NCBI GenBank assembly: GCA_046542255.1
Contig: JBKHBT010000012.1
Span: 1 to 55,972 of the forward strand
DNA: 55,972 nt
Direction of reading: 5' to 3'
Origin: Candidatus Zixiibacteriota bacterium
Lineage (GTDB): Bacteria > UBP14 > UBA6098 > JBKHBT01
Below the pieces are notes generated by a model, which was not told the DNA's origin, made no database searches, and saw only the letters and a list, made by a program, of their open reading frames with translations. Shown piece by piece: positions 18,771 to 55,351 of the stretch (position 1 is its first letter; each line of letters begins with the position of its first letter). The position numbers were made by a program, and so were the translations under genes.

Positions 18771-21700
18771 CTATTTTTGCAAAACTTTCTCCACTACCTC
18801 ACGAAGACATTCCTTAGTATAAGGCTTTACAACTACTTCCTTGAATCCATAATCCGAATAATTTACCAAAACCTCGTCCTCAGCATATCCGCTGGAAACA
18901 ATAACATTTGCATTTTTATCGATTTTTAGTATTTCAGTTATTGTCTCTATTCCGCCTTTTCCACCTGGAATTGTAAGATCCATTATGATAATATCAAAAC
19001 CCTGGCCTTGTTGGTATGCCTTTTGAAAAATCTCGATAGCCTCTTCTCCTGATGCTGCAGTAGCAGTCTCGAAGCCCATGCTGACAAGACGATATTTGGT
19101 AACGCGTCGGACAATTTCTTTATCGTCCATTATCAATGCCCTTTTGCCTTCGAATTTTTTGTGGGGTTTTGGAGTTACTTTGGAATTCTTCTTCTTTTGT
19201 TCTTTTTCTATGGCAGGAATAAGCAGTTCGAAAATCGTACCTTTTCTCGCCGAAGACTTTACCTCGATATAACCCCCATGCTTTTTGATTATGGAATAAA
19301 CCGTTGTCAAGCCAAGCCCGCCTTCAGAATCTTTTGTGCTAAAATAAGGATCGAATATCTTATCGATATGGTTTTCGGAAATACCATGTCCCTCATCTGC
19401 AAATGTTATCTTGATATACTTCCCTGATTGAAATTGGGAGAAATTTTGAACATCGAGTTCAATATTTTCTAAATCTATGTATAAATTACCGCCATCTGGC
19501 ATGGCCTCTTTGGCATTTAATGTTAGATTAGAAAATACCTGCTGAATCTGGCCCTTATCGACATTCGCAATCCAAAGACCATCGGGACAATTATAAACAG
19601 GTTTCACATTGCTACCCGAAAGGTCAAATTGGACGATATCCTTCAGCACCTCGATCAAACGAATATCCTGTTTTACTGGAGCCCCCCCTTTCGAAAATGT
19701 TAGGAGTTGTTTGCTCAGACGCTTTGCCATATCCAATGATGCTTCTGAATCCTGAAGGAATTTCCATGCTGGATGCGATGGCTCGAGATTGTCTTTTACA
19801 ATCGAAAGATTACCAAAAAGGCCCATAAGAATATTATTAAAATCATGAGCGATACCACCTGCCAGAGTTCCGAGACTTTCTAATTTCTGAGTACGAATCC
19901 TTTGATCTTCGAGATTCTTTCTTTCGGTTATATCGCGAACCGTTGCCAATACTTTATCATCCTCGAAAGGAACCATTTGGGCATTGTAAATTTTTTCTTC
20001 TGAACCTTTTAAGAATTTATAGTCGAAAACCCTTTTGTTTTTAGTCTCGATAGTTTTTGCGATGTTTTCTAATATAATTTTCTGCTGTTCTTCTGAAAAA
20101 CCAGCATCCTTGATATTCTTGCCGATTATTTCTTCGGAAGATATAAGCAACTCTTCATCTATCTCGGCTTTGAAATCGATATATGTCCCATAGCTATCGA
20201 GAATAAACATCATCTCTGGCATCGCATCAAGAAGTGCTTGATTTCTATTGTAGGTGATTTCTAATTGCTTCTCCTGTTCCTTTTTTTCGGTAATGTCCCT
20301 AACCATTGAAAGCACCTGCCCTTCGCCACAAGGAACCATTCTTACTTCAAAGAAATGCTGCTTTTCATCTAATATCAGAGAATATTCATAATTTTGATTT
20401 TCCTTGGACTCCAGAGTTTTTATCACTTTCTTTTTGGTTAATTCAGATAGCTTTTTGGGCAAAACCTCATCAATTTTCTTACCAATGAACTCCTTCTCCG
20501 GAACAAGCAGCTTTTCGCTTTGCGGTGCGTGATTATCAATAAATCTGAATTGGTCATCTATTCTAAATAATAAATCGGGAATAGCGGCTAAAGTTGCACT
20601 ATATCTCTTTTCATTTTCACGGATCGCTTCTCGCATCTTGTATTCTTTTGTTACATCTCTAAAAACGAGTACGGTGCCTAAGATATTGCTATTTTTATCT
20701 TTTATGGGAGCTGCTGAATCTGCGATTTGATATTTCTTGCCACTTTTGGAAATAAGGGCAGTATGATTGGCAAGCCCAATAATTTTACCTGTTTGTAATA
20801 CTTTGCCTACCGGATTATCGACTTTTTTCAACGTATTGGAATCTACAATATTAAATACTTCTGTTAATCCTCTTCCAATTGCATCTTCAATCTTCCATTC
20901 AGTTAATTTTTGGGCGATAGGATTCATAGATTCAATATTACCCTTGGTGTCGGTAGTTATAACTGCATCGCCAATAGAATTGAGTGTCGTCTCCAATCGG
21001 TCTCGGCTTTCACTTAGCTGTAATTCGGTTTTTTTACGTTCGGTAATATCATCTATGATAGACAAAATCCTATTATGGCCATCCATCTTCAAGATTTCAG
21101 CAAAGAAAAGTCCGATTAAAATTCCACCGCTTTTCTTTTGTAATTCAACCTCGATACCATCTACTCTGCCCTTTTCTGCTAATTCATTTTTTATTTTTGT
21201 TCTGTTTTCTTGAGAAAGAATCTTCAAGTCAATGGATGTTTTGCCAATTATTTCGGCTCTTTTATAGCCAGTGGTTTTAATAAAATTACTATTAATTTCA
21301 ATATATCTATCTGTATCGATATCCTCGATACACATAAGTAACGGTCCATTATGAAACGCCCTGGAAAACAATTCTTCAGACCTTCTAAGCTCCTTTTCCA
21401 TTTCCTTTCTTTTGCTAATATCTTCAAAAACAGTAACGAAATGCGAGCTATCAGTTGAGAATGCAGAAATGGAAAAATATTTATTAAAAGGTTTGAAATA
21501 GACTTCAAATCGGTAAGGTAGTCCTGTTCGGGCAACTTTAGTGAAGATTTCAAGATAAGGCGGCCTGTCTGTTCCATAGACTTCGGTTGAAAATTTACCA
21601 ACTATATCTTCGGTTCTAAGCTCCAGAATATTTTCATACGCAAGGTTTACATCAGTGATACGATAATCCACTGGATTGCCAAGTTTATCATGGACAATCT

Positions 21701-22226
21701 CGTGGATTGCAACTCCTTCGTTCATATTTTCGTATAGTTTGCGATATTGCTTTTCGCTTTTTTTTATCTTTTCCCGCAAAAGGAAACTATTTGTGCTATC
21801 TCGAAAGACAATCACAACTCCTTTTATTTTTCCAAAACTATCGAATATCGGCGCGCCAGAATCTGAAATATGGTATTTATCACCATTTTTAGAAATTAAA
21901 ATGGCATGATTGGCCATATCGACTACAATACCTTTTTTTAATACTTTTTTTGCAGGAGAATCTATTCGTATGCCGTTTTTAGAATCCACAAGATGCAAAA
22001 TCTTGGATATTTTATGGCCAATAGCATCATCAGCATTCCACCCGGTGAGTCTTTCTGCTTCAGGATTGAGGCCGGTAATAATTTCTTTCGCATCACAAGA
22101 AATGACAGCATCACCCATGGAATTGAGAATCATTCGTAGATTATCGATCTTACTAGATAATGCTTTTATCTTCTCTTTGGCCTGTTGTAAATCGCTAATA
22201 TTCGAATCAATATGACCACTGTCCAT
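18771..22226 (-). CDS. Multi-PAS hybrid sensor histidine kinase with a C-terminal receiver domain
   Basis: Several PAS repeats, HisKA (LAGGIAHDFNNIL), HATPase (GxGLGL) and a receiver domain (RALIMDD...IIMDLTIPG). Confidence 0.85.
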   Translation of the reverse strand: MDSGHIDSNISDLQQAKEKIKALSSKIDNLRMILNSMGDAVISCDAKEIITGLNPEAERLTGWNADDAIGHKISKILHLVDSKNGIRIDSPAKKVLKKGIVVDMANHAILISKNGDKYHISDSGAPIFDSFGKIKGVVIVFRDSTNSFLLREKIKKSEKQYRKLYENMNEGVAIHEIVHDKLGNPVDYRITDVNLAYENILELRTEDIVGKFSTEVYGTDRPPYLEIFTKVARTGLPYRFEVYFKPFNKYFSISAFSTDSSHFVTVFEDISKRKEMEKELRRSEELFSRAFHNGPLLMCIEDIDTDRYIEINSNFIKTTGYKRAEIIGKTSIDLKILSQENRTKIKNELAEKGRVDGIEVELQKKSGGILIGLFFAEILKMDGHNRILSIIDDITERKKTELQLSESRDRLETTLNSIGDAVITTDTKGNIESMNPIAQKLTEWKIEDAIGRGLTEVFNIVDSNTLKKVDNPVGKVLQTGKIIGLANHTALISKSGKKYQIADSAAPIKDKNSNILGTVLVFRDVTKEYKMREAIRENEKRYSATLAAIPDLLFRIDDQFRFIDNHAPQSEKLLVPEKEFIGKKIDEVLPKKLSELTKKKVIKTLESKENQNYEYSLILDEKQHFFEVRMVPCGEGQVLSMVRDITEKKEQEKQLEITYNRNQALLDAMPEMMFILDSYGTYIDFKAEIDEELLISSEEIIGKNIKDAGFSEEQQKIILENIAKTIETKNKRVFDYKFLKGSEEKIYNAQMVPFEDDKVLATVRDITERKNLEDQRIRTQKLESLGTLAGGIAHDFNNILMGLFGNLSIVKDNLEPSHPAWKFLQDSEASLDMAKRLSKQLLTFSKGGAPVKQDIRLIEVLKDIVQFDLSGSNVKPVYNCPDGLWIANVDKGQIQQVFSNLTLNAKEAMPDGGNLYIDLENIELDVQNFSQFQSGKYIKITFADEGHGISENHIDKIFDPYFSTKDSEGGLGLTTVYSIIKKHGGYIEVKSSARKGTIFELLIPAIEKEQKKKNSKVTPKPHKKFEGKRALIMDDKEIVRRVTKYRLVSMGFETATAASGEEAIEIFQKAYQQGQGFDIIIMDLTIPGGKGGIETITEILKIDKNANVIVSSGYAEDEVLVNYSDYGFKEVVVKPYTKECLREVVEKVLQK

Positions 22227-22481
22227 GATTGTCCTAACTTAAGTCTAATTATAAGTTATAGGCTATACCATTTTTTCTTGACACTATTAAAACAATTTTT
22301 TGCTCTTCCTCATTTTAATTATACACAAATTTCCTAAAATGTCAATTTTTTTTACAAATTAATTCATGATAACAAAAATTTTAGAAGGTCTTTGGATACA
22401 ATTGCTCCATCAAAATTTTTCTTTCAATTTAATTCAGATTTTGTATTTTCTATAAAGGTATTTAATATTGAGGATAATTTA

Positions 22482-24905
22482 ATGGATTATAGCAAATTCA
22501 CAAAACAAGAGTTGATAGCGGAAATATTACACCTCGAAGAAAATGAAAAGAAATTGCTCTATCTAATCGAATCGATGACCTTTGGAATTGTCTTTCAAGA
22601 TAAGTCGGGAATAATCATATCCGCAAATAAAATGGCCGAAAAGATACTTGGCCTTTCACTCCAACAGATGCAAGGCCGCAAATCCACAGACCCCAGATGG
22701 AAATCGATACGTGAAGATGGCTCTTCTTTTCCCGGCGAAGAACATCCTGCAATGATTGCTCTGAAAACTGCCGAAAAAGTCCATAATGTCAAAATGGGAG
22801 TAAAAAAGCCTGGCAATCCAGAAATCACATGGATCAATATCAATGCTGTGCCATTATTTCGTGATGGAGAAAATGAGCCTTATCAAGTTTACTCTACTTT
22901 TGAAGATGTAACCCAAACAGTTAACTTTCAAAAAGGGCTACAAAAAAGCCAGAAGATTTTCGAGCTTTTTATGAAACATCTTCCCGGTGCGGTCTTCTTG
23001 AAAAACCAAACAGGTAAATTATTATTCGCAAATGCGACATTTGCAAAATTAATCGGTAAAAACCCAGAAGAAATAATCGGCAAAAATATTGATAGGATGC
23101 TGAATCCTAAAAATGTAGAAGCATTTGCCGAAGAGAATAGAAAAATTATTCTAAATCGCCAACCTATTGTATCCGAGCATGAGTTTACCTGGCAAGGCAA
23201 TACTTCTCATTTCTATAACTATAAATTCCCAATCGAATTAAAAACCGACTTTTTTGACATGCAGCAAAATATACTTATCGGCTCAATAAGTATCGATATA
23301 ACCGATCTAAAACAGATGCAGAACGCATTGGTCGAATCGGAAGAAAAATATAGAAACCTGGTAGAACACACTCCACAGGGCATTTGTACAATCGATGATA
23401 AAGGTATCTATATTTTCATGAATGAAGCAGCGGCAAAAGCCCTGGGCGGACTTCCTAATGATTTCATCGGCAAAAAGATGAATGAGATCTTCCCTGAAGA
23501 AATCGCGAATGAACAGCTATCAGAAATCCATAAGACAATTGAAAAGGGCAAATATCATCAGACAATAAAGCGCTCTTATGTCGCTGGTGAATATAGATGG
23601 TTCGAAGCTAGAATGCAGCCACTTCAAAATGATGAAGACCATTTTGACCGGGTCTTGCTTATCCTTACTGATGTAACAGAAATCAGAAAAGCCGAAAAAG
23701 AGAGAGAAGAATTACGCGCTAAATTGCAAAGAGCTCAAAAAATGGAAGCTCTGGGAACATTGGCTGGTGGAGTTGCCCATGATCTTAATAATATTCTCTC
23801 GGGAATCGTTGGTTACCCAGAAATCCTAATGATGGATATCGAAGATCTAAAAAATAAAACTAGTAACTACCTCTTTTTAGAAAAATTAGATGACATTCAC
23901 AAGACTATTGATATGATTAATAATTCAGGGCAAAGAGCTGCAAATGTGGTTCATGATCTTCTTACTCTTGCAAGAAGAGGAGTAAATATCAGCAAACCGG
24001 TTAATATCAATGATATAGTAAAATATTTCATCCATTCACCCGAATATGCAAAAATCCTAAAAGAAAATCCTGGAATCGAAGTAGAAACTCGACTGAATGA
24101 GAACACTCAAAATATCATTGGTTCGAAAGCGCATCTAAATAAAACATTATTGAACCTTGTCTTAAATGCCTTCGAGGCAATGCATAAGACTGGAACGATA
24201 AAAATTGAAACGAGAAATCAAACAATAATCGGCAACAAAAATGGATATGAGATAATACCCGAAGGTAGTTATTCTTTATTGATTGTTAAAGATGAAGGCA
24301 CTGGTATCAAAGATGAAGATTTGGAAAGAATTTTCGAACCTTTTTATACTCGCAAAATAATGGGCAGAAGTGGCACAGGGTTAGGAATGGCAATTGTATG
24401 GGGTACTGTTAAGGACCATAATGGATACATAGATATCGATACAAAAATAGGTTATGGCAGCACTTTCACAATATATCTACCTGTATCAGATCAAGACATA
24501 AAAAATGACAATGTACCAGAAAGTAAAGAAAATCTATATGGAAAAGGCCAAAAAATTCTCATAGTCGATGATATCGAAGCCCAAAGGAAACTGGCGAGTG
24601 ATATTTTATCGAGATTTGGTTATGAGACCATTACTGCAAGTAGCGGTGAAGAAGCGATTGAAAAATCTAAAAAACAGAAATTTGACCTCGTCATTCTCGA
24701 TATGATAATGAATCCTGGAATAGATGGCCTCGATACATATAAAATACTTCTCGAAATAAATCCTGAACAAAAAATCATTATTGCAAGTGGTTATTCTGAA
24801 AACGACAGAGTGAAAAAAGCCCTTGAATTAGGAGCGAGTAAATATATCAGAAAACCATATAGCATAATGCAATTGGTCAAAGATGTCAAAGAATCAATGT
24901 TTTGA
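22482..24905 (+). CDS. Multi-PAS hybrid sensor histidine kinase with a C-terminal receiver domain
   Basis: PAS repeats, HisKA (LAGGVAHDLNNIL), HATPase and a receiver domain (KILIVDD...LVILDMIMNPG). GAGGA RBS lies 8 nt before the ATG at 22482. The ORF is open from 22392. Confidence 0.85.
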   Translation: MDYSKFTKQELIAEILHLEENEKKLLYLIESMTFGIVFQDKSGIIISANKMAEKILGLSLQQMQGRKSTDPRWKSIREDGSSFPGEEHPAMIALKTAEKVHNVKMGVKKPGNPEITWININAVPLFRDGENEPYQVYSTFEDVTQTVNFQKGLQKSQKIFELFMKHLPGAVFLKNQTGKLLFANATFAKLIGKNPEEIIGKNIDRMLNPKNVEAFAEENRKIILNRQPIVSEHEFTWQGNTSHFYNYKFPIELKTDFFDMQQNILIGSISIDITDLKQMQNALVESEEKYRNLVEHTPQGICTIDDKGIYIFMNEAAAKALGGLPNDFIGKKMNEIFPEEIANEQLSEIHKTIEKGKYHQTIKRSYVAGEYRWFEARMQPLQNDEDHFDRVLLILTDVTEIRKAEKEREELRAKLQRAQKMEALGTLAGGVAHDLNNILSGIVGYPEILMMDIEDLKNKTSNYLFLEKLDDIHKTIDMINNSGQRAANVVHDLLTLARRGVNISKPVNINDIVKYFIHSPEYAKILKENPGIEVETRLNENTQNIIGSKAHLNKTLLNLVLNAFEAMHKTGTIKIETRNQTIIGNKNGYEIIPEGSYSLLIVKDEGTGIKDEDLERIFEPFYTRKIMGRSGTGLGMAIVWGTVKDHNGYIDIDTKIGYGSTFTIYLPVSDQDIKNDNVPESKENLYGKGQKILIVDDIEAQRKLASDILSRFGYETITASSGEEAIEKSKKQKFDLVILDMIMNPGIDGLDTYKILLEINPEQKIIIASGYSENDRVKKALELGASKYIRKPYSIMQLVKDVKESMF

Positions 24906-35028: not shown

Positions 35029-36585
35029 ATGAAAAAGGCTATTTTCGTTTTGATTTTAATTTTAAGTGTAAATCTAATATTCGCAGCAGAAGCAGACACT
35101 CTTCCACCATTTATGATAAATTTCGCACATTCTGCGCCTGCACCTTCGGCACAGACATTTTTCCAGGCCGACCTTATCGAGGATCTACCCACCGTTGGAA
35201 TAGTAGAATCATACCTCGCATATTCAACTGATAATTGGTCGACGAAAACCGAAATTACTGCAACCGATATGGGAATCTCTGGTCATCAAACCTATGAAGC
35301 AGCCGTAACTAATCCTTCCGCTGGAAATGTCGATTATTATTTCTATTTTGAATCCGATGACAAATGGGCTGGCCAATGCCCTCTTTATGATGGCACAGCA
35401 TCACCATCTATACCTGAGAACTATATGTTGTATTGTGGGTATGATGGCGCTGGCACTGATTCCACCTTGCCTGATCATGATGAAGCAGAAGACTTAGATC
35501 TTCTCGAATACTGGTTTGGAATGTCTAATGGCCGTTTTTATGGCAAGATGCGTAATGCAACCGGTAGTTGGCATTTAGAAAATGGAAGTTTAATGTTTGG
35601 TGGAAAACATGTTTTCGGTTATGGTATTGCTATCAATAACCCGGACAGGCCGGATGAAGATTATATGTACCTTATGGCCCAATGTGGTAATTTATCCGTT
35701 TCTGGTATGGTCGATATTAGCCCTGGAGTTTTAGAGGCCTATACTGCTGAGGGTGCCGAAGAAGTCTGGAATATAGGCGATGCAGATATAACAACTACTG
35801 GTGATATTTTGGAGATATCTGCTCCTATAAGCACGTTTACCGGAGGAGATCATTTTGGCGGAACTACCCCAGCAAGTGGATTTTATCAGGTAACTGCTTT
35901 TACAATGTATCTTTATGCATCTCTTAGCGGTCAGGATTTTTCATTTGTTGAAGCTACGAAAATTGGTAAGCTTTATATTAATAATTTCAGCAGCCCGGAA
36001 GCATGGGAATATACAGTCGGCGGTGCAAATACTGCACCTCTTCTTTCCGGGCCCGGTTCTGATGATGAAGAGATCTGGGTAACCTATACCGATGCTGATA
36101 ATAATCAAGCAGTAGATGCATTTGTATCGATAGACGGCGGAAGCCCGATAGAGATGTCAACAGTCGATCATGTATATGATGATGGCGCTGTTTATAGATG
36201 CACCGTCGGCGACCTTTTCTATGGTGCCGAACTCGATTTTGATTTCTCTGATGGAATGGCTGATGCTACTATGGATTATTCTGTTGGTATCGATGAGCAC
36301 AAAGTAGTTTCATTACCAGAAAATCTCGAACTCGAATGTGCTCCGAACCCATTTAATCCCGCAGCCCAGATTAGCTTTAATATAGAAAATGACGATTTTG
36401 TAGAACTCGGCATCTACAATACAAATGGACATAAAATCACCAATCTTATCGTATCAGACTTAGAAGCAGGTGTACATAGCACAAGATTCGATGCATCTTC
36501 ATTTGATTTAGCTGCTGGAGTATATTTGGTTAATTTAAGAACTTCTAATGCAAGCGTTTCAGAAAAGATAATCTATATTAAATAG
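35029..36585 (+). CDS. Secreted protein with a T9SS C-terminal sorting domain
   Basis: Signal peptide. C-terminus CAPNPFNPAAQISF...LGIYNTNGHKI...GVYLVNLRT. Confidence 0.6.
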   Translation: MKKAIFVLILILSVNLIFAAEADTLPPFMINFAHSAPAPSAQTFFQADLIEDLPTVGIVESYLAYSTDNWSTKTEITATDMGISGHQTYEAAVTNPSAGNVDYYFYFESDDKWAGQCPLYDGTASPSIPENYMLYCGYDGAGTDSTLPDHDEAEDLDLLEYWFGMSNGRFYGKMRNATGSWHLENGSLMFGGKHVFGYGIAINNPDRPDEDYMYLMAQCGNLSVSGMVDISPGVLEAYTAEGAEEVWNIGDADITTTGDILEISAPISTFTGGDHFGGTTPASGFYQVTAFTMYLYASLSGQDFSFVEATKIGKLYINNFSSPEAWEYTVGGANTAPLLSGPGSDDEEIWVTYTDADNNQAVDAFVSIDGGSPIEMSTVDHVYDDGAVYRCTVGDLFYGAELDFDFSDGMADATMDYSVGIDEHKVVSLPENLELECAPNPFNPAAQISFNIENDDFVELGIYNTNGHKITNLIVSDLEAGVHSTRFDASSFDLAAGVYLVNLRTSNASVSEKIIYIK

Positions 36586-41140: not shown

Positions 41141-44050
41141 ATGACAAATAGCATTTTTGCCGGACGCGAAAAAGAATTATCTATTCTAGACAATGTTAAT
41201 AAGAAGCTACAGCTTGGAAAACCGATACCTATTTATACTTTCTTTGGTAGGATCGGCCTGGGTAAAACAACCCTTCTTAATAAAATAATCGAACAATCTT
41301 CGAGCGTATTTCCGGGTTATTTCATAAATTCCATTTTTATGCCCAAGACACCTATCGAATTCATCCATAGAATTTGTTTAGAAATAACTAAAAATTTCGG
41401 TGCAGAATTCCCAAGAACCGGAATGATTCTTGCTAGAATTAAACTTATGATCGAATTAAATGAATTTGAAATCGATGGTACCTTCAATTTCAGAAATAAT
41501 ACTCTCGCCCGAGATGAAGATGACATATATCCTCAGGTTAAATATTTTTTCAAAGAACTTTTCGGCAAAGACTTCTACCAGTTATTCCTTGGACTCGAGT
41601 TGCGCGAGCTAATTGGAATTTTGCCCATAGCTTTTGGAAAAGATATCGACTCGATGATTTCGGATAATTCCCTTCGCGGTTTCATTCTGGCCATCGATGA
41701 TATCGATGATCTTAAACTACTACCCTGCTCCTGGCTTTTGAAAATAAAACAGCAAAGCCACAGAATACTTCTTCTTTTTACTTCCGAAAACCCTATCGAA
41801 CACCAAAAGATAGAAAATATTCAGGCACGGAGCTTTACAAAAAGTGACTTCTTTACCTTTCTTAGAAAAAAGGGAATTAATATCGAACCTGTTTCTCAAG
41901 ATATTGATTTCGAAAGTGCTATGCTTCGAGTTCCATTCTGGACAAATCTCTTTGCAGAAAATCTGCTTAAAAATATATTCCCAAAAGACGGACAGGTAAT
42001 TTCATACGATACAATCGGTGAAAATTTTTGGCAGCAATTGCCCATTCAATACAAAAACCTACTGGGATTGCTTTTTATAATTCCGAAATACAAAATTTCC
42101 AGGCTCGACACAATCATCGATGATTTCGATATTAATGTGATAGATAATGTCATAGTAAAACACCGAAATGAAATCGCTCTTTCAAAATCTTTTGTTGGCT
42201 TTATTGGCAAAAAGCTAAGAGAAGAATCAGAAATTCGGTCTTTTATCAAACAAATTGCAAATAGCAACATTTTCGACAATCCAGCTCTCGATGCCATAAA
42301 TGACAAAGATACAGCTATTTACAATTTAATTAGCGATATCCTAGTAGATATCTATCTCGTTAAGACCGACAATGCTGATAAAATCGCCAATAATTTGGAC
42401 AATATGCTTCGGATATTTCCAATGGTACCTTTCTGGGAATATTTATTACATAGATATCGCGAGATTTACTTTGATTCTGAATTATTACATGAAAATCAGA
42501 AAATAGAAAAGAAAAACCAGGACGGCATCTATCATTTTCTGAATCTTGGAATCTCGCAGATAAATATTTATCTCGACCTGGGCGAATTCAGGGCTGCTAA
42601 GGATGAACTCGATGAAATGGCAGAATATCTTGGTAATATATCTTCCAGTACTCTTTCCGGCATGAATCGCCGTTTTCTACGATGCCTTCTGACATATTCT
42701 GCAATTTCAATATACCGGAATCTTGGCGCAACCGAAAAGATGCTGGCCGAATACGATTCGCTCAAGTTATACTGGCATCGATTATCCGAAGTTTTGCCGA
42801 GGTCATTGCAGGATATTATTTTGATACTCGAAATTCATACCGACCTTGAAAAACTCAAAGACCTAATAATCCTAAGAAGTGAAGGCCTAATGGATGGTTT
42901 CGCAAATATCAACAGGAAACTTCAGAAACTTCGAAAGGGTAAAATGCATTCATATCTTGAATGGTCGATTAATTATCAGAAATCGATATTTCTAAGTTCT
43001 CATCAATCGACCCTCCGTGCACTATCGACTATCCAGCTTTCACGAAAACAGATAATCCAATTTCTAAAAAATATCGAAATCTCTGATAGAAAGAAAACCT
43101 TATTACTGGTTAAATATGGTACAGACTTCGCGGATATGATCAGTGCTTTGAGCGATGCTAATGCTTTCAATAAATATATAAATGATGTAATCAAAAGCCT
43201 AAAATCGATAAAAGAATCGATCTTAGAAAATGACCCTGAGCTCCTTTTCACTTTGGGGCGAGCTTACTTTGTTTCTGGTAATTTCCTCTTTTACCAGAAT
43301 AAATATGTCGAATCTTATTCGCAACTATCGCTGGCGACCGGACTTTATCAAAGGTATTTGGATTTTCGCAAAGACGATAGAAAAATCGAGTCTTTCCTTT
43401 CGGATGCTTATTATTTATGTGGTAGAGCTTCTGAGAAACTTCGCAATTACAAAAATGCACAGGAGCTATTCAAGCTTGCAGAAGATTATACAAGAATGCT
43501 TCTAAAAAGGAAAGAAAATGAAGAATTTCTGCTTACCAGATTAGGAATGATTATTTTCCGAAAATCCAGAGCCTATGAGATCCTTGGATTCGAATCCAAA
43601 AGCAGGGATTCACTGGAAAAGGGAATCAGGATATATGAGCTTCTTTTGAAATCCGGCGCATCCGAACCGCAAAGAGTACTATTCAATCTTGGCCAGGCCC
43701 AGCTTTTCAAGGCCACAACAGTTAAAATGTCCAATCGAGAAGCTCTCGATGTCCTTGAAAAGTCTCTGGAAAATCTTGAAAAATCCGCACGCCTTGGTTT
43801 TGAGAAAAGCTCATCTCTTATCGAGCATATTGGTTCTGTCGCTCTTTCAATATACAATAATGCTATCGATGGCAATGATTATAATGATGCATTTAAGGCG
43901 ACTCTTCTTGCTGGAAAGACTGCGCTTCTTACAGATCATACCAAATTGAAAAACAATACGATTGAATTAATTCTGCAATGGGAGCAATTTCCATTAAATC
44001 AGGAGTATTACCAAATGCTCAAAGACCTTGAAATAAATCTAAAAGACTAA
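41141..44050 (+). CDS. STAND-type P-loop NTPase (AAA_16-like) with a C-terminal TPR-like repeat array
   Basis: FAGREKELSILDNV...YTFFGRIGLGKTTLL (AAA_16 pattern) and Walker B-like LAIDDIDDL. The ~600-aa helical repeat region has TPR-like periodicity. No N-terminal effector domain and no HTH. Confidence 0.5.
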   Translation: MTNSIFAGREKELSILDNVNKKLQLGKPIPIYTFFGRIGLGKTTLLNKIIEQSSSVFPGYFINSIFMPKTPIEFIHRICLEITKNFGAEFPRTGMILARIKLMIELNEFEIDGTFNFRNNTLARDEDDIYPQVKYFFKELFGKDFYQLFLGLELRELIGILPIAFGKDIDSMISDNSLRGFILAIDDIDDLKLLPCSWLLKIKQQSHRILLLFTSENPIEHQKIENIQARSFTKSDFFTFLRKKGINIEPVSQDIDFESAMLRVPFWTNLFAENLLKNIFPKDGQVISYDTIGENFWQQLPIQYKNLLGLLFIIPKYKISRLDTIIDDFDINVIDNVIVKHRNEIALSKSFVGFIGKKLREESEIRSFIKQIANSNIFDNPALDAINDKDTAIYNLISDILVDIYLVKTDNADKIANNLDNMLRIFPMVPFWEYLLHRYREIYFDSELLHENQKIEKKNQDGIYHFLNLGISQINIYLDLGEFRAAKDELDEMAEYLGNISSSTLSGMNRRFLRCLLTYSAISIYRNLGATEKMLAEYDSLKLYWHRLSEVLPRSLQDIILILEIHTDLEKLKDLIILRSEGLMDGFANINRKLQKLRKGKMHSYLEWSINYQKSIFLSSHQSTLRALSTIQLSRKQIIQFLKNIEISDRKKTLLLVKYGTDFADMISALSDANAFNKYINDVIKSLKSIKESILENDPELLFTLGRAYFVSGNFLFYQNKYVESYSQLSLATGLYQRYLDFRKDDRKIESFLSDAYYLCGRASEKLRNYKNAQELFKLAEDYTRMLLKRKENEEFLLTRLGMIIFRKSRAYEILGFESKSRDSLEKGIRIYELLLKSGASEPQRVLFNLGQAQLFKATTVKMSNREALDVLEKSLENLEKSARLGFEKSSSLIEHIGSVALSIYNNAIDGNDYNDAFKATLLAGKTALLTDHTKLKNNTIELILQWEQFPLNQEYYQMLKDLEINLKD

Positions 44051-44267: not shown

Positions 44268-44573
44268 ATGGCACAGAAAATGCGAATAAAACTAAGGGCT
44301 TATGACAATGTTATCCTGGACAAATCGGTTCAGGAAATAATTATGACTGCGAAGAAGGCAGGAGCAATCATCTCTGGTCCGGTTCCCCTTCCTACAAAGA
44401 AGCGTGTTTACACGATTCTTCGTTCGCCACATGTCAACAAGCGTTCGAGAGAACAATTCGAGATTCGAATTCATCGTCGCTTGATCGACATACACGAGGC
44501 GGACAGCCGGATTGTGGATGGAATGATGAAGATAGATCTTCCTGCTGGAGTAGATATTGAGTTATTACTATAA
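44268..44573 (+). CDS. rpsJ: 30S ribosomal protein S10
   Basis: Conserved S10 sequence (RIKLRAYD...[11 protein letters not shown]...RSPH). Confidence 0.95.
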
Positions 44574-49176: not shown

Positions 49177-50112
49177 ATGAAAATTGCGATATCCTGTGGA
49201 GATCCTGCCGGAATTGGCCCTGAGATAGTCAATAAGGCTTTATCACATTTCGAAAATGACAATATTAAATTTCGATATTTTTGCAATAGTCATCTCATAG
49301 AAAAACTCTATGCAATAATGCCACAAGTTCCTAAAATCAAATCAAATACAGATATAATCGATATAGATGTTGATATAGAATCGCCCAAATTCGGCAAAGC
49401 AAGCCCGGAAGGCGGTGAAATATCCTGGCAATCTTTTATACAGGCTACCGAAGATGTAATTTCCGGGCACTCTGATGCCATTGTAACAGCTCCTATCAAC
49501 AAATATTCCTGGAAATTGGCTGGTTTCGACTGCCCCGGACATACAGATAAGCTTGCCGAAATATTCAGAATTGATGATTTTGCAATGGCTTTTATCAAAG
49601 AGCCGTATCGACTGATATTGCAGACAATTCACGAACCTCTCTCGCATATAAGTACTATGATTACATCCGATTCTGTTTACAAAAAAATCATTATGGCTGC
49701 TGATTTCTTGAATCGAATTGGCGAAGATATCCATATCGATGTACTTGGATTGAATCCTCATGCTGGCGAGAAAGGAAAATTTGGCCATGAAGAAAAGCCA
49801 ATCAAAGATGCAATTATAAAGGCCCAAAATGAAGGCATCGATTGCTATGGGCCGCATGTGCCGGATGCTTTTTTCACTAAATGGCAAAATTCCCCCGAAG
49901 GCATGGTTATAGCAATGTATCACGACCAGGGTTTGATACCTTTCAAGATGATTTCGAAAGGTTATGGCGTAAATACGACTCTCGGCCTGCCAATTATCCG
50001 CACTTCTCCTGAACATGGTACAGCCATGGATATTGCGGGTAAAAACCTGGCATATCCCACCAGCATGATCGAAGCAATCAAGCTAGCAATAAAGCTGCAC
50101 AAAACAACCTAA
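49177..50112 (+). CDS. pdxA: 4-hydroxythreonine-4-phosphate dehydrogenase
   Basis: MKIAISCGDPAGIGPEI start, metal-binding His motifs (GHTD, NPHAGE) and ~310 aa. Confidence 0.8.
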   Translation: MKIAISCGDPAGIGPEIVNKALSHFENDNIKFRYFCNSHLIEKLYAIMPQVPKIKSNTDIIDIDVDIESPKFGKASPEGGEISWQSFIQATEDVISGHSDAIVTAPINKYSWKLAGFDCPGHTDKLAEIFRIDDFAMAFIKEPYRLILQTIHEPLSHISTMITSDSVYKKIIMAADFLNRIGEDIHIDVLGLNPHAGEKGKFGHEEKPIKDAIIKAQNEGIDCYGPHVPDAFFTKWQNSPEGMVIAMYHDQGLIPFKMISKGYGVNTTLGLPIIRTSPEHGTAMDIAGKNLAYPTSMIEAIKLAIKLHKTT

Positions 50113-50129: not shown

Positions 50130-50354
50130 TTAATCAAATAGGATTTTTTTATTTTCCATATCTTCGACAGCTTCTTCCAATGATTCGACAAATTTTATAA
50201 ACATACACCGATTCGTGATTATATTCTCTATGAATTTTAAGTCCTTTGGGCAATATCCCATTTTTTCTTTAAGGATTTTAGCTACTTCAACCCTTGGCTT
50301 TTCAACTCCATCGATGCTAAAATCTTCATAATGTTTGATGTAAACAAATCGCAT
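50130..50354 (-). CDS. Hypothetical small protein (74 aa)
   Basis: An ORF only. No recognised motif and no clear RBS. Confidence 0.25.
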   Translation of the reverse strand: MRFVYIKHYEDFSIDGVEKPRVEVAKILKEKMGYCPKDLKFIENIITNRCMFIKFVESLEEAVEDMENKKILFD

Positions 50355-50521: not shown

Positions 50522-51193
50522 TTGATAGAATTCCACAATGTGAGTAAAACCTTTAAGGACTGGATAGCATTATCGAATGTGAGTTTCGATTTTGATGATG
50601 AGGAGTTTCTTTATCTTGTCGGCAATTCCGGCGCTGGCAAGACTACCCTACTCCGATTAATATATATGCAACAACTTCCAACAAGCGGATATGCCGAAAT
50701 TCTTGGATTCAGGACTGATCAGATAGAAGAGAATAAAATTCCAGAGCTAAGGCGGCAATTCGGTTATGTGTTTCAGGATTTCAGGTTGCTTCCCGAGCTA
50801 AATGTCGAGCAGCAGGTGCAATTTGTAATGACAGTAACTGGCAAGTCTAAGAGGTTTATCAAGCAGAGGACTTTTCAGGCATTATCCGAGGTAGGGCTTT
50901 TGCATAAGGCCAAAGCTATGCCAAATGAGCTTTCCGGCGGCGAGGCACAGAGAGTCGCCATAGCAAGGGCAATATCAAATTATCCCAAGGTAATCCTTGC
51001 AGACGAGCCAACAGGAAATCTCGACCCAGGAGCAACACAGGATGTGATAGAACTTCTATTGAAGATAAACAAGCAAGGCACTGCTGTAATTATGGCAACA
51101 CATGATATCGATATTGTCGAAGAAAACCCATCGAGGACAATAGAGCTTCAAGACGGAGTGGTTGTGGGCGATACCAAGCTGGGAGGAAGATGA
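50522..51193 (+). CDS. ftsE: Cell-division ABC transporter ATP-binding protein FtsE
   Basis: GNSGAGKTTLLRL, LSGGEAQRVAIARAI and ILADEPTGNLD motifs. TTG start with AAGGAG 7 nt upstream. It overlaps ftsX. Confidence 0.8.
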   Translation: MIEFHNVSKTFKDWIALSNVSFDFDDEEFLYLVGNSGAGKTTLLRLIYMQQLPTSGYAEILGFRTDQIEENKIPELRRQFGYVFQDFRLLPELNVEQQVQFVMTVTGKSKRFIKQRTFQALSEVGLLHKAKAMPNELSGGEAQRVAIARAISNYPKVILADEPTGNLDPGATQDVIELLLKINKQGTAVIMATHDIDIVEENPSRTIELQDGVVVGDTKLGGR

Positions 51194-52041
51194 CAAAGTT
51201 TCTTTTTGCGCTTCGGGAATCTCTGAAATCATTCTATAAACGCGCTTTTGTTACATGGCTTTCAATCGCTACAATAACCGGTGCAATCTTTGTACTGGGA
51301 CTTTTCATTTTTGTCAGCTATAACCTGCAACAGCAGCTAAAAGGCATTCAAAGCCAGGTTCATGCAGAATTGTTTTTCAAAGCAGATACAGATGAAAATG
51401 ACGCAAAAGCCCTAGAGAGGAAATTCGATAAGCTCGATTGGGTAGATAGGACCAAATTTATTAGCAAAGATGATGCGCTGGAGATTTTCAATAAAGAATT
51501 CGACCCTACCCTTCTCGAAGGTTTACCCCAAAATCCTTTGCCAGCCTCAGTAATCATCTATTTTACAGGAGAAAAAGATCTCGGCGAGGTGGCGGGGAAA
51601 CTCGAGGGTTTTGTAGAAAATCATAACATAATCGATGCAACTTTTCTACCGACTGAGACAATGCGTTCACTTGCCAATGCACGCGAGATTTTCTCATGGC
51701 TGACAATTGCTTGGGCAATAATCATTCTATTCGCATCCATAATAGTAGTTACCAACACAATTCGACTTGCAATGCTTTCTAGGCGTGAAACAATCGATGT
51801 TATGAAATTAGTAGGTGCTGATAGATCTTTTATCCGTTTGCCTTTTATTTTTGAAGGAATTTTCCAGGGCATATTTTCTTCGCTATTTTCAATCGGACTT
51901 CTATTTCTGATTGGCCACATAATAAAATATGCGCTTCCATCTGTCTTTTTACTGCCCAATCCTTTAATTATAATTTTAGGGCTATTTGGAATTGTTTTTG
52001 GGGTTCTTGGTAGCCGTATAGCTATTAGTAAATACGTTTAA
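51190..52041 (+). CDS. ftsX: Cell-division permease-like protein FtsX
   Basis: N-terminal TM helix, a periplasmic domain and three C-terminal TM helices. Translationally coupled to ftsE. Confidence 0.7.
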   Translation: MTKFLFALRESLKSFYKRAFVTWLSIATITGAIFVLGLFIFVSYNLQQQLKGIQSQVHAELFFKADTDENDAKALERKFDKLDWVDRTKFISKDDALEIFNKEFDPTLLEGLPQNPLPASVIIYFTGEKDLGEVAGKLEGFVENHNIIDATFLPTETMRSLANAREIFSWLTIAWAIIILFASIIVVTNTIRLAMLSRRETIDVMKLVGADRSFIRLPFIFEGIFQGIFSSLFSIGLLFLIGHIIKYALPSVFLLPNPLIIILGLFGIVFGVLGSRIAISKYV

Positions 52042-52168
52042 GCTTTCCTAACATCCAATAAATAAATAATTTTTCTTGACAATTCATGCATTTTAATACA
52101 TATTTACACCATTGAGACAAAGTTAAACAAAATCAATAACTATAAAAATGATCGCAAAGGAGACGGAA

Positions 52169-52507
52169 ATGTCACAATATCATGAACCAGTTGAAGAACT
52201 GAGTACTAAGACAAGAAACATTACACGAGCAATACAGAGCTTCAAAGAAGAGCTCGAGGCCATCGATTGGTACAATCAGCGAGTAGATACAACCAATGAT
52301 GAATCGCTAAAAAAAATTCTCGAACATAATCGCGATGAAGAGATCGAACATGCATGTATGACCCTCGAATGGCTGAGGCGCAATATGGATGCCTGGGATG
52401 ATGAGCTTAAGACCTATCTATTCACAGAAGGCGATATTACAAAGCTCGAAGAGGGTGAAGAAGATGATGAAGAAGACAGTACCGATCTTCAGATTGGAAA
52501 ACTTTAA
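52169..52507 (+). CDS. Encapsulin-associated ferritin-like cargo protein (EncFtn) with a C-terminal targeting peptide
   Basis: LEAIDWYNQRVD...ILEHNRDEEIEHACMTLEWLRRN...LKTYLFTEGDI closely matches the EncFtn family as I recall it (R. rubrum type). An acidic linker leads to C-terminal DLQIGKL. AAGGAG lies 6 nt before the ATG at 52169. It sits immediately upstream of the encapsulin gene. Confidence 0.75.
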   Translation: MSQYHEPVEELSTKTRNITRAIQSFKEELEAIDWYNQRVDTTNDESLKKILEHNRDEEIEHACMTLEWLRRNMDAWDDELKTYLFTEGDITKLEEGEEDDEEDSTDLQIGKL

Positions 52508-52530
52508 TTAATACAAACATAGGAGAAATA

Positions 52531-53325
52531 ATGGATATTTTTAGAAAATCACTTGCGCCTATTAGCGAAGCTGCCTGGGATGAAATCAATGAGCAGGCCA
52601 AAATAACACTTACTACCTTTCTATCTGCAAGAAAGTTTGTCGATGTAGAAGGCCCTAAAGGACTTGATTTTTCGGCAGTTAATCTCGGTAGATTATCGAT
52701 CGAGCCGGACCATGAAAAAGATGATGTAAAATTTGGAATGCGCAAAGTCTTGCCTCTTATCGAAACGCGGATACCATTCGAGCTGAATATCTGGGAACTC
52801 GATGATGCTGCTCGAGGCGCAGAAGATATCGATCTTGGACCACTTGAAGATGCCGCAGAGAAAATTGCAAAATTTGAAGATAATGCAATATACAATGGCT
52901 TCAAAAAAGCAGCGATAGCAGGACTAAAAGAAGTTTCCGAGCACAAAATTATGACATGCCCCAAAGATGCAGAAGAAGCTCTTTGCTCGATTCCAGAGGG
53001 TATTCGAATACTCAAAGAATCAGCCATAGATGGACCCTATGCATTGGTAGTCAATCCTGCAAAATGGCAGGAAATTGCAGCTTATGCCAAGGGATATCCC
53101 CTGAGAAGACAAATCGAAGAGATGTTAGATGGCAAATTGGTCTTCTCGCCAAATATTGATGGAATGTATCTTGTTTCACAGCGCGGTGGCGATATGATAC
53201 TTACAATCGGACAGGACATGACAATCGGCTATGATGGACATGATTCAAAGAAGGTCAAGCTCTATCTTATGGAGTCATTCACTTTCCATATTACCGATCC
53301 TGCTGCCTTCATTGTTTTTGGCTAA
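52531..53325 (+). CDS. Family 1 encapsulin shell protein (HK97 fold; linocin M18 family)
   Basis: MDIFRKSLAPISEAAWDEINEQA...RKFVDVEGPKGLDF closely parallels the T. maritima encapsulin ([23 protein letters not shown]...RKFVDVEGPYGWEY). 264 aa. C-terminus GQDMTIGYDGHD...LYLMESFTFHITDP. Confidence 0.85.
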   Translation: MDIFRKSLAPISEAAWDEINEQAKITLTTFLSARKFVDVEGPKGLDFSAVNLGRLSIEPDHEKDDVKFGMRKVLPLIETRIPFELNIWELDDAARGAEDIDLGPLEDAAEKIAKFEDNAIYNGFKKAAIAGLKEVSEHKIMTCPKDAEEALCSIPEGIRILKESAIDGPYALVVNPAKWQEIAAYAKGYPLRRQIEEMLDGKLVFSPNIDGMYLVSQRGGDMILTIGQDMTIGYDGHDSKKVKLYLMESFTFHITDPAAFIVFG

Positions 53326-53339
53326 ATATAAGAGCTATA

Positions 53340-53367
53340 AAAGCCCCACAATTGTGGGGCTTTTATT
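53340..53367 (+). terminator. Rho-independent terminator after the encapsulin operon
   Basis: Perfect 18-bp palindrome GCCCCACAATTGTGGGGC followed by TTTTATT. Confidence 0.7.
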
Positions 53368-53520
53368 ATGCAAAATGAATACTCAAATATTAAGTTTGTG
53401 AATATCTTCCCAAACTATTTGACAAACTAAGGCTAAGTTAATAAATTACTAAAAATTTCCGGCAGCAGATGTCGGATTTGAAATTTTATGAATATACTTG
53501 TTTTGAAGGAGTCAGAATAA

Positions 53521-54246
53521 ATGGCACGCTTATCAGTAAATTTGGATCATGTAGCTTCGCTTCGAGAGGTTCGTGCTGCAAGAAATCCAGACCCGGTTCA
53601 TGCGGCTGTGATTGTCGAGCAAGCTGGCGCAGATGGTATCACATTGCACCTCAGAAAGGATAGACGTCATATAAAAGATAGAGATCTTTTTCTAATTCGT
53701 CAGGTCATCTCGGCGAATTTGACACTTGAGATGGCACCGATTGAAGAAATGCTTCAAATCGCAATCAAGCTAAAGCCTAATATGGTTACGCTGGTCCCTG
53801 AACTTACCACAGAACTTACCACCGAAAGAGGTTTTAATCTGGTGGAGGAAGGCGAATCTATCGAAGGGTATATATCGACTCTGCGCGAGGCTGGAATAGC
53901 TGTATCACTATTTATCGACCCTGATGAGAATAATATCAAAATGGCAAATGAATTGGTTGCCGATTTTGTCGAGCTGAATACTTCGCGATATGCAGATGCA
54001 TCCAGCTATGATGAAGAAATCGATTCATTGCGCGAAATCGAAAAAGCAGCCAGCCTTGGCGATAATAAAGGCTTGGGGATTGCAGTTGGCCATGGATTGA
54101 ACTATAAAAATGTCGGAAATATTGCAAGAATTTTACCAATCGAAGAATTCTCTATCGGGCATGCAATCATTGCAAGAAGCGTATTCACTGGAATCGATAA
54201 GGCTGTTAAAGAAATGAAGGATGAGATAGAAAAGGTCAGAACATAA
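53521..54246 (+). CDS. pdxJ: Pyridoxine 5'-phosphate synthase
   Basis: VNLDHVASLREVR...PDPVHAAVIVEQAGADGITLHLRKDRRHIKDRDL parallels E. coli PdxJ almost motif for motif. Confidence 0.9.
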   Translation: MARLSVNLDHVASLREVRAARNPDPVHAAVIVEQAGADGITLHLRKDRRHIKDRDLFLIRQVISANLTLEMAPIEEMLQIAIKLKPNMVTLVPELTTELTTERGFNLVEEGESIEGYISTLREAGIAVSLFIDPDENNIKMANELVADFVELNTSRYADASSYDEEIDSLREIEKAASLGDNKGLGIAVGHGLNYKNVGNIARILPIEEFSIGHAIIARSVFTGIDKAVKEMKDEIEKVRT

Positions 54247-54644
54247 TGATAGAAGAGATCGAACATACAGCCGATGCAGGAATCAGAGTAAAAGCAGAAA
54301 GCCTGGAAGAGCTTTTCTATGATGCTGCTAAGGGTATGCTCGAGCTAATTATAGAAGACGACGGCTCATCGCCCGATAAGGAGATAAAAATAAAACTCAA
54401 GGCTAATTCAATAGAAAAACTCCTTATCAAATTCTTATCAGAAATACTTTTCCATGTGCAGGATGAATATAATAATCCTCGCAAACTGAAAATTAATAGG
54501 ATAAAGAAAAACCGCATCGAAGCAACACTTATGGTCAATAATAATAATGCACAAACTGGCGAAATCAAAAATGTAACTTACCATAATTTCAAGCTGGAAA
54601 AGGTTGATTCTGGTTGGATTTGTGAGATAATTTTCGACCTATGA
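54246..54644 (+). CDS. Archease-family protein
   Basis: EEIEHTADAGIRVKAESLEELFYDAAKGM is the N-terminal archease signature. 132 aa. Confidence 0.6.
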   Translation: MIEEIEHTADAGIRVKAESLEELFYDAAKGMLELIIEDDGSSPDKEIKIKLKANSIEKLLIKFLSEILFHVQDEYNNPRKLKINRIKKNRIEATLMVNNNNAQTGEIKNVTYHNFKLEKVDSGWICEIIFDL

Positions 54645-54667: not shown

Positions 54668-55351
54668 ATGGGTCTAAAAGACAATATCGATAAAGTTCTC
54701 GATAATATAAAAGAAACAGCAGAAAAGCATGGCAGAGATGCCGATGAAATAAAACTCGTAGCGGTAACCAAATATTCTGATACCAATGAGATACTCGAAG
54801 CATACAATAATGGCCTGGACATCTTCGGAGAAAACCGCGTACAACCTGCTTTGCCCAAAATAGAAAAACTGCCAAATGATATAGAATGGCATATGATCGG
54901 CCATCTGCAGCGCAATAAAGTCAAATATGTGCTGGGTAAATTCGAGATGATTCACTCTGTGGATTCTCTTCGATTGGCAAAAGAAATCCAAAAGCGTGCT
55001 GCAAAAATGGATTTGACACAGAAGATACTTCTCGAGGTCAATGTATCTGGCGAAGAATCTAAATTTGGCCTTAATCCTAAGACTGCGGCCGAACTTACCG
55101 GGCAAATTTTGGAGATGCCTAATATTCATCTACTTGGTTTTATGACAATGGCACCATTTATCGGCGATGAGAAGGTGATTGCTAATGTTTTCAAGATCCT
55201 ACGGCTAATGCGCGATAATATCGAGACCGAGTATGCACATAAATTCCCCGAACTATCGATTGGTATGACCAATGACTACAAGATCGCTATTGCCGAGGGT
55301 GCAACAATCCTAAGAATCGGTTCTGCGATTTTCAAAGGAGATGAATCTTAA
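54668..55351 (+). CDS. yggS: YggS/PLPHP-family pyridoxal-phosphate homeostasis protein
   Basis: LVAVTKY (PLP-binding Lys), IGHLQRNK and a TIM-barrel of typical length. Confidence 0.8.
   Translation: MGLKDNIDKVLDNIKETAEKHGRDADEIKLVAVTKYSDTNEILEAYNNGLDIFGENRVQPALPKIEKLPNDIEWHMIGHLQRNKVKYVLGKFEMIHSVDSLRLAKEIQKRAAKMDLTQKILLEVNVSGEESKFGLNPKTAAELTGQILEMPNIHLLGFMTMAPFIGDEKVIANVFKILRLMRDNIETEYAHKFPELSIGMTNDYKIAIAEGATILRIGSAIFKGDES

Follow-up and report, generated by a model that had tools for sequence, protein, structure and literature searches.

The analysed Zixibacteria contig very probably carries an EncFtn-type operon of family 1 encapsulins in its classical two-gene form. The operon lies within a window of 55,972 nucleotides, the whole stretch of DNA that was analysed, and comprises a gene for a 112-aa encapsulated ferritin-like protein (encFtn) followed by a gene for a 264-aa shell protein. 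Both ORFs reported in the first-pass annotation exist, on the plus strand, and 23 nt separate the encFtn stop codon from the start of the shell gene (Table 1). The assignment is carried by family membership, conservation of catalytic and tag residues, the predicted fold of the shell, the operon architecture and a terminator. Chance resemblance is ruled out because the E-values of the family-model matches range from 1e-43 to 1e-86, and no evidence contradicting an EncFtn-type encapsulin operon was found in this analysis. The pair is preceded by ftsX (51190-52041, +) and followed by pdxJ (53521-54246, +), and the flanking genes had been correctly named as ftsE, ftsX and pdxJ, judging from Pfam and NCBIfam profile matches. 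The peptide motifs quoted earlier for the two proteins (EEIEHACMTLEWLRRN, the C-terminal DLQIGKL and RKFVDVEGP) are all present.

Table 1. Features of the encapsulin locus, with positions counted from the first nucleotide of the window
Feature	Position	Strand	Evidence
Candidate sigma-70-like promoter, TTGACA-17 nt-CATATT, in the ftsX-encFtn spacer	52076..52104	+	10/12 consensus positions
Shine-Dalgarno sequence AAGGAG of encFtn, 6 nt before ATG 52169	52157..52162	+	sequence read directly
encFtn, 112-aa encapsulated ferritin-like cargo (predicted ferroxidase)	52169..52507	+	family models, R. rubrum EncFtn, conserved residues
Acidic linker (LEEGEEDDEEDSTD region), from ferritin-like domain to targeting peptide	52442..52483	+	homologue alignment
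C-terminal targeting peptide DLQIGKL, predicted cargo-loading tag	52484..52504	+	alignment, published consensus
Shine-Dalgarno sequence AGGAG, shell gene, 5 nt ahead of the ATG	52521..52525	+	sequence read
Family 1 encapsulin shell, 264 aa, predicted HK97-type fold	52531..53325	+	family models, 3dkt, AlphaFold2 model
Intrinsic terminator, 13-bp G+C-cored hairpin and U-rich tract (UUUUAUUAU)	53337..53370	+	folding and palindrome

The smaller protein belongs to the EncFtn family, as had been proposed, and passes the cut-offs of two models. It matches PF22277 (EncFtn-like) with 145.2 bits (cut-off 27) over model positions 1-85 of 85, and TIGR04535 (ferrit_encaps, encapsulin-associated ferritin-like protein) with 156.8 bits (curated cut-off 125). 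Its closest solved relatives are the encapsulated ferritins of R. rubrum and H. ochraceum (E = 6e-33 to 3e-29). Residues E31, E32, E34, W38, Y39, H57, E61, E62, E64 and H65 of the R. rubrum protein correspond here to E27, E28, E30, W34, Y35, H53, E57, E58, E60 and H61, each of which is invariant in an alignment of 26 sequences. A check of the di-iron ligands thus finds Glu32, Glu62 and His65 (ExxH) as well as Tyr39, in R. rubrum numbering, all kept (E28, E58, H61 and Y35). Replacement of Glu32, Glu62 or His65 by alanine lowers or abolishes ferroxidase activity, and Tyr39 is highly conserved and adjoins the ferroxidase centre (review PMC11202242). Given 57% identity to the R. rubrum EncFtn, for which the decamer has been solved, we infer that the protein could form a decameric (D5) ring with ferroxidase activity.

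The ferritin-like domain is followed by an acidic, probably disordered linker (LEEGEEDDEEDSTD), whose length and composition differ from homologue to homologue. A disordered C-terminal domain of 10-40 aa is carried by this cargo class (review PMC11202242). At the tag positions of the homologue alignment, which read L-G/N/Q-I-G-K/D-L/I/M with the consensus LGIGKL, I109 and G110 are invariant and L107 is nearly so. The extreme C-terminus, L-Q-I-G-K-L, also matches the published FLP targeting-peptide consensus, L(F)-X-V(I)-X-X-L(I) (PMC11202242), and both the acidic linker and the short cargo-loading tag described earlier are accordingly present.

Apart from one spurious antisense ORF, EncFtn is the only one of 259 ORF segments of at least 60 aa in the window to have a tag-like C-terminus. 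Because this kind of tail occurs on no other ORF across the 56 kb of the window, EncFtn is the only locally encoded cargo. The shell might nevertheless mainly package cargo encoded elsewhere, such as a DyP peroxidase, rubrerythrin or hemerythrin, with EncFtn as a minor cargo or co-cargo. Family 1 shells with several cargo types are known, M. xanthus EncB, EncC and EncD appear among the matches to the shell in sequence and structure searches, and the window represents only 56 kb of the genome. The confinement of the tag-like tail to EncFtn argues against a principal cargo from elsewhere, as does the strict EncFtn-shell pairing in the nearest relatives, which have no other adjoining cargo gene, and we consider such an arrangement improbable.

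The 264-aa protein is a family 1 encapsulin shell by its match to the equivalog model NF041155 (encap_f1; 286.5 bits, cut-off 100), and it aligns to model positions 1-253 of 253 of PF04454 (Linocin_M18; 287.9 bits, cut-off 24.3). The close parallel to the T. maritima encapsulin that had been drawn from its sequence holds, with a match to 3DKT at E = 3e-63 and 41% identity over residues 1-262. An AlphaFold2 model built on a 40-sequence alignment has a mean pLDDT of 88.3 and a pTM of 0.84. In a Foldseek search of the PDB, the top matches of the predicted shell are all encapsulin shells, with TM scores of 0.90-0.93 and E-values down to 4e-31. The rmsd to the wild-type shells among them, those of E. 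coli, K. pneumoniae, T. maritima, M. tuberculosis, M. smegmatis, H. ochraceum and B. linens, is 1.8-2.9 A. The expected HK97 fold is thus recovered, in that the model superposes on solved T=1 encapsulins with TM 0.90-0.93. The predicted structure has the A-domain, P-domain and E-loop of an HK97-type fold, without extra domains, and the adjacent cargo gene coding for a targeting peptide at the C-terminus, encFtn, is located 23 nt upstream.

The pattern of structural similarity also bears on the size of the particle. The 27 best structural matches of the model are all T=1 shells. TM scores of 0.74-0.79, at about 20% identity, are obtained for M. xanthus EncA (including engineered T=1 assemblies), for the other T=3/T=4 shells (Q. 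thermotolerans and B. methanolicus), and for the D. quercicolus encapsulin. The greater likeness to T=1 than to T=3/T=4 shells suggests that the protein would most likely form a T=1 60-mer.

Encapsulins and phage capsids have the HK97 fold in common, and a few homologues of the shell carry a precomputed match to PF05065 (phage capsid). The shell gene could on these grounds be the remnant of an HK97-type major capsid protein from a degraded prophage. The equivalog-level match, however, is to family 1 encapsulins rather than to a capsid family, and the top structural matches are all encapsulins. In addition, the surroundings, with ftsEX and pdxJ as neighbours, contain no phage genes, no integrase and no flanking repeats, and a dedicated cargo gene with a targeting peptide is found directly upstream. 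Together, these observations effectively refute a prophage origin, to which we assign a negligible probability. We likewise reject, as having next to no likelihood, the notion that the two genes are a relic without activity or, following old annotations, encode a secreted 'linocin M18' bacteriocin. Databases still give several homologues the names 'bacteriocin' or 'linocin/CFP29 family', but the bacteriocin label is a historical error of attribution that the structural work on encapsulin PDB entries has replaced. Both ORFs are intact here, their ribosome-binding sites are good, and every functional residue is conserved.

The start of encFtn had been placed at 52148, which would give a 119-aa ORF and is 21 nt too far upstream; the 112-aa protein begins at ATG 52169. 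The reading frame is open from ATG 52148, but no Shine-Dalgarno sequence precedes that codon, whereas ATG 52169 has one at suitable distance (Table 1). The same start methionine is found in 25 of 25 aligned EncFtn homologues, in the context Met-Ser/Thr/Ala-x-Tyr/Phe-His-Glu. On the strength of the Shine-Dalgarno sequence and the homologue alignment, we take ATG 52169 as the start and regard ATG 52148 as probably not used.

A promoter-like TTGACA had been noted in the 127-nt spacer between ftsX and encFtn. The site exists, although it begins at position 52076 and not at 52075, and with the downstream CATATT it forms a promoter candidate. Such matches to the consensus occur at chance frequency in this AT-rich region, the scanner having found nine sigma-70-like sites against 10.5 +/- 2.9 expected in shuffled sequence, with no enrichment, and the candidate is thus suggestive only. 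No terminator-like site was found between ftsX and encFtn, and read-through from ftsEX is therefore possible. The strong terminator reported after the shell gene is real. A perfect palindrome of 15+15 nt (53337-53366) forms a hairpin of 13 bp closed by a loop of 4 nt, its 3' arm ending in UUUUAU. The hairpin has a dG of -22.6 kcal/mol (z = -5.06), and none of 200 shuffled sequences folded as well. A consensus terminator scanner missed this plus-strand hairpin, probably since the maximal stem absorbs the T-run. No riboswitch or sRNA was detected near the operon, as an Rfam scan of the whole window at gathering thresholds returned two tRNAs only.

The first-pass annotation had not expected such a locus to be annotated. 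This expectation was wrong, because GenBank already labels both proteins exactly as proposed. EncFtn is identical to MFP4458616.1, 'MAG: encapsulin-associated ferritin-like protein [Candidatus Zixiibacteriota bacterium]', and the shell to MFP4458617.1, 'MAG: family 1 encapsulin nanocompartment shell protein [Candidatus Zixiibacteriota bacterium]'. Their GenBank neighbours are MFP4458615.1 (FtsX) and MFP4458618.1 (PdxJ). The reading of the locus as an EncFtn encapsulin operon is correct, and the operon is an already known one of an ordinary, textbook kind.

In a collection of 5.8 billion proteins, more than 4,100 homologues of EncFtn were found, the nearest being 75-79% identical. For the shell, none of the 120 best matches listed in the search of the same collection exceeds 59% identity, and among these its nearest relatives, at 57-59% identity, come from KSB1 and from Bacteroidales/Bacteroidota. 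Except for the query itself, no Zixibacteria occur among the named proteins in the 120 best matches for either EncFtn or the shell, and we found no work pairing encapsulins with Zixibacteria in the searchable literature. The EncFtn-then-shell pair also occurs in the KSB1 and Bacteroidales relatives, in wholly different neighbourhoods, and behaves as a self-contained module.

Whether the pair was inserted between ftsEX and pdxJ, as had been stated, is unproven. Its GC content is the same as that of its flanks, with 41-42% in the encapsulin genes, 41% in ftsEX and 42.6% in pdxJ, and there is no compositional step. Direct or inverted repeats flanking the pair are absent, only short chance matches and the terminator palindrome having been detected, and there is no syntenic relative without the pair. 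Of 80 pdxJ loci drawn from representative genomes, which include several Zixibacteria, not one places ftsX, EncFtn or encapsulin beside pdxJ; the best PdxJ identity is only 59%, and a close comparator is lacking. The housekeeping protein PdxJ is 51-59% identical to its nearest relatives and is thus about as diverged as the shell (57-59%), so that the data fit vertical descent within the FCB group and lateral transfer equally well. We tentatively raise the possibility, which we hold to be rather less probable than its converse, that the genes represent a divergent Zixibacteria encapsulin lineage, perhaps taken up as a portable cassette of two genes whose donor resembled Bacteroidota or KSB1. 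If true, this would widen the known phylogenetic range and illustrate cassette mobility, and would imply no new mechanism.

Other features of the window concern the surroundings of the operon. Genes of vitamin B6 (PLP) metabolism, pdxA (49177-50112), pdxJ and yggS (54668-55351), bracket ftsEX and the encapsulin genes, so that cell-division and encapsulin genes break up the PLP cluster, with no evident functional link. An archease-family gene (54246-54644; PF01951, 109 bits) shares an ATGA overlap with the pdxJ stop codon (54243-54246), which suggests translational coupling to pdxJ. Archease normally partners the RtcB RNA ligase, and no rtcB was seen near the archease gene. Between pdxA and ftsE, a 74-aa ORF (50130-50354, -) without a Pfam match is the only candidate minus-strand gene in an otherwise plus-strand run.

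Further upstream, a ribosomal-protein S10 cluster (S10 at 44274-44561, then L3, L4, L2, S3 and L16, with L29 reaching to 49115) immediately precedes pdxA at 49177. The expected rpsQ gene (S17) and spc operon are missing there, and a tblastn search of the whole window with query sequences representing E. coli S17 and L14 gave no match. The discontinuity is either a lineage-specific break in the ribosomal protein superoperon or a join made during MAG assembly. A 969-aa ORF (41141-44050), immediately upstream of the S10 operon, matches no Pfam family above cut-off, its only match being a weak N-terminal one to ATPase_2 (20.8 bits, cut-off 33.2). Two large divergent hybrid histidine kinases, of 1151 aa (-) and 837 aa (+), are encoded at 18771-24905, and both have multiple PAS domains and C-terminal receiver domains. 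In a 995-aa protein (1956-4943), a PPDK_N domain (pyruvate phosphate dikinase nucleotide-binding) accompanies a partial match to a receiver domain. The Por_Secre_tail (type IX secretion sorting) domain of a 518-aa protein (35029-36585) agrees with the FCB-group (Zixibacteria) origin indicated by the NCBI protein names.

By analogy with the R. rubrum, T. maritima and H. ochraceum homologues, we can propose an assembly state, mode of packaging, ferroxidase activity, mineralisation and physiological role for the two proteins. The 264-aa shell protein would self-assemble into an icosahedral shell, most likely T=1, of 60 subunits and about 24 nm. EncFtn would form ring-shaped decamers with a di-iron ferroxidase centre at each dimer interface (Glu28, Glu58 and His61, with Tyr35 nearby, in the numbering of the 112-aa protein). 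The LQIGKL at the end of its flexible acidic tail could dock in a hydrophobic P-domain cleft on the inner face of the shell, and the cargo would therefore be packaged during assembly. Fe2+ might then pass through the shell pores and be oxidised at the ferroxidase centres of the EncFtn dimer interfaces, and the Fe3+ mineral would be deposited in the shell lumen rather than within EncFtn, itself devoid of a cavity. The expected outcome would be high-capacity iron storage and protection from Fenton chemistry and the oxidative damage driven by iron and oxygen.

The structure and biochemistry of EncFtn-type family 1 encapsulins are well characterised, and such proteins are recognised by automatic annotation pipelines. 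The locus records, for an uncultured lineage of Zixibacteria, a nanocompartment with predicted roles in iron storage and oxidative stress. Its fairly distant shell (at most 59% identity among the 120 best matches listed) could serve the mining of encapsulin diversity for engineering and phylogeny.

Among characterised shells, we compared the predicted protein with the T. maritima encapsulin (maritimacin; 3DKT/7KQ5), which is of the T=1 type and equal in length, with two single-residue gaps and 41% identity over residues 1-262. A ferritin-like cargo gene, TM_0786, lies directly upstream of the T. maritima shell gene, as encFtn does here. Arg79 and Trp87 of the T. maritima shell, which we take to be flavin-site residues, are kept here as R80 and W88. 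The loop at T. maritima residues 184-188, presumably the five-fold pore loop, is one residue shorter here and lacks His187, as it does in the consensus of the nearest relatives. The hosts also differ, a mesophile-like, AT-rich member of an FCB-group lineage here and a member of the Thermotogae in the case of T. maritima. Among published tags, the T. maritima DLGIRKL is the closest in likeness to the DLQIGKL found here, and it has been seen bound to the shell in 3DKT (PMC11202242).

For the cargo, the counterpart in our comparison is the R. rubrum EncFtn (5DA5, 33BF, 9RY4), which is 57% identical over 102 residues (E = 6e-33). Its ferroxidase centre (E32, E62, H65 and Y39) and entry site (E31, E34 and W38) are identical here. 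The R. rubrum shell matches the shell described here with E = 5e-58, and the order of the R. rubrum operon, EncFtn and then shell, is the same. The tags differ, SLGIGSLK in R. rubrum and DLQIGKL here, and the linker is shorter and more acidic than that of the R. rubrum EncFtn.

The closest sequences come from uncharacterised operons in KSB1 and Bacteroidales MAGs (L081 and L083), with shells 57-58% and EncFtn proteins about 75% identical to those described here. These operons have the same two-gene architecture with a short gap. Their neighbours are AOX-like and sulfatase genes in KSB1 and glycosyltransferase and MscS-channel genes in Bacteroidales, whereas the operon described here is flanked by ftsEX and pdxJ.
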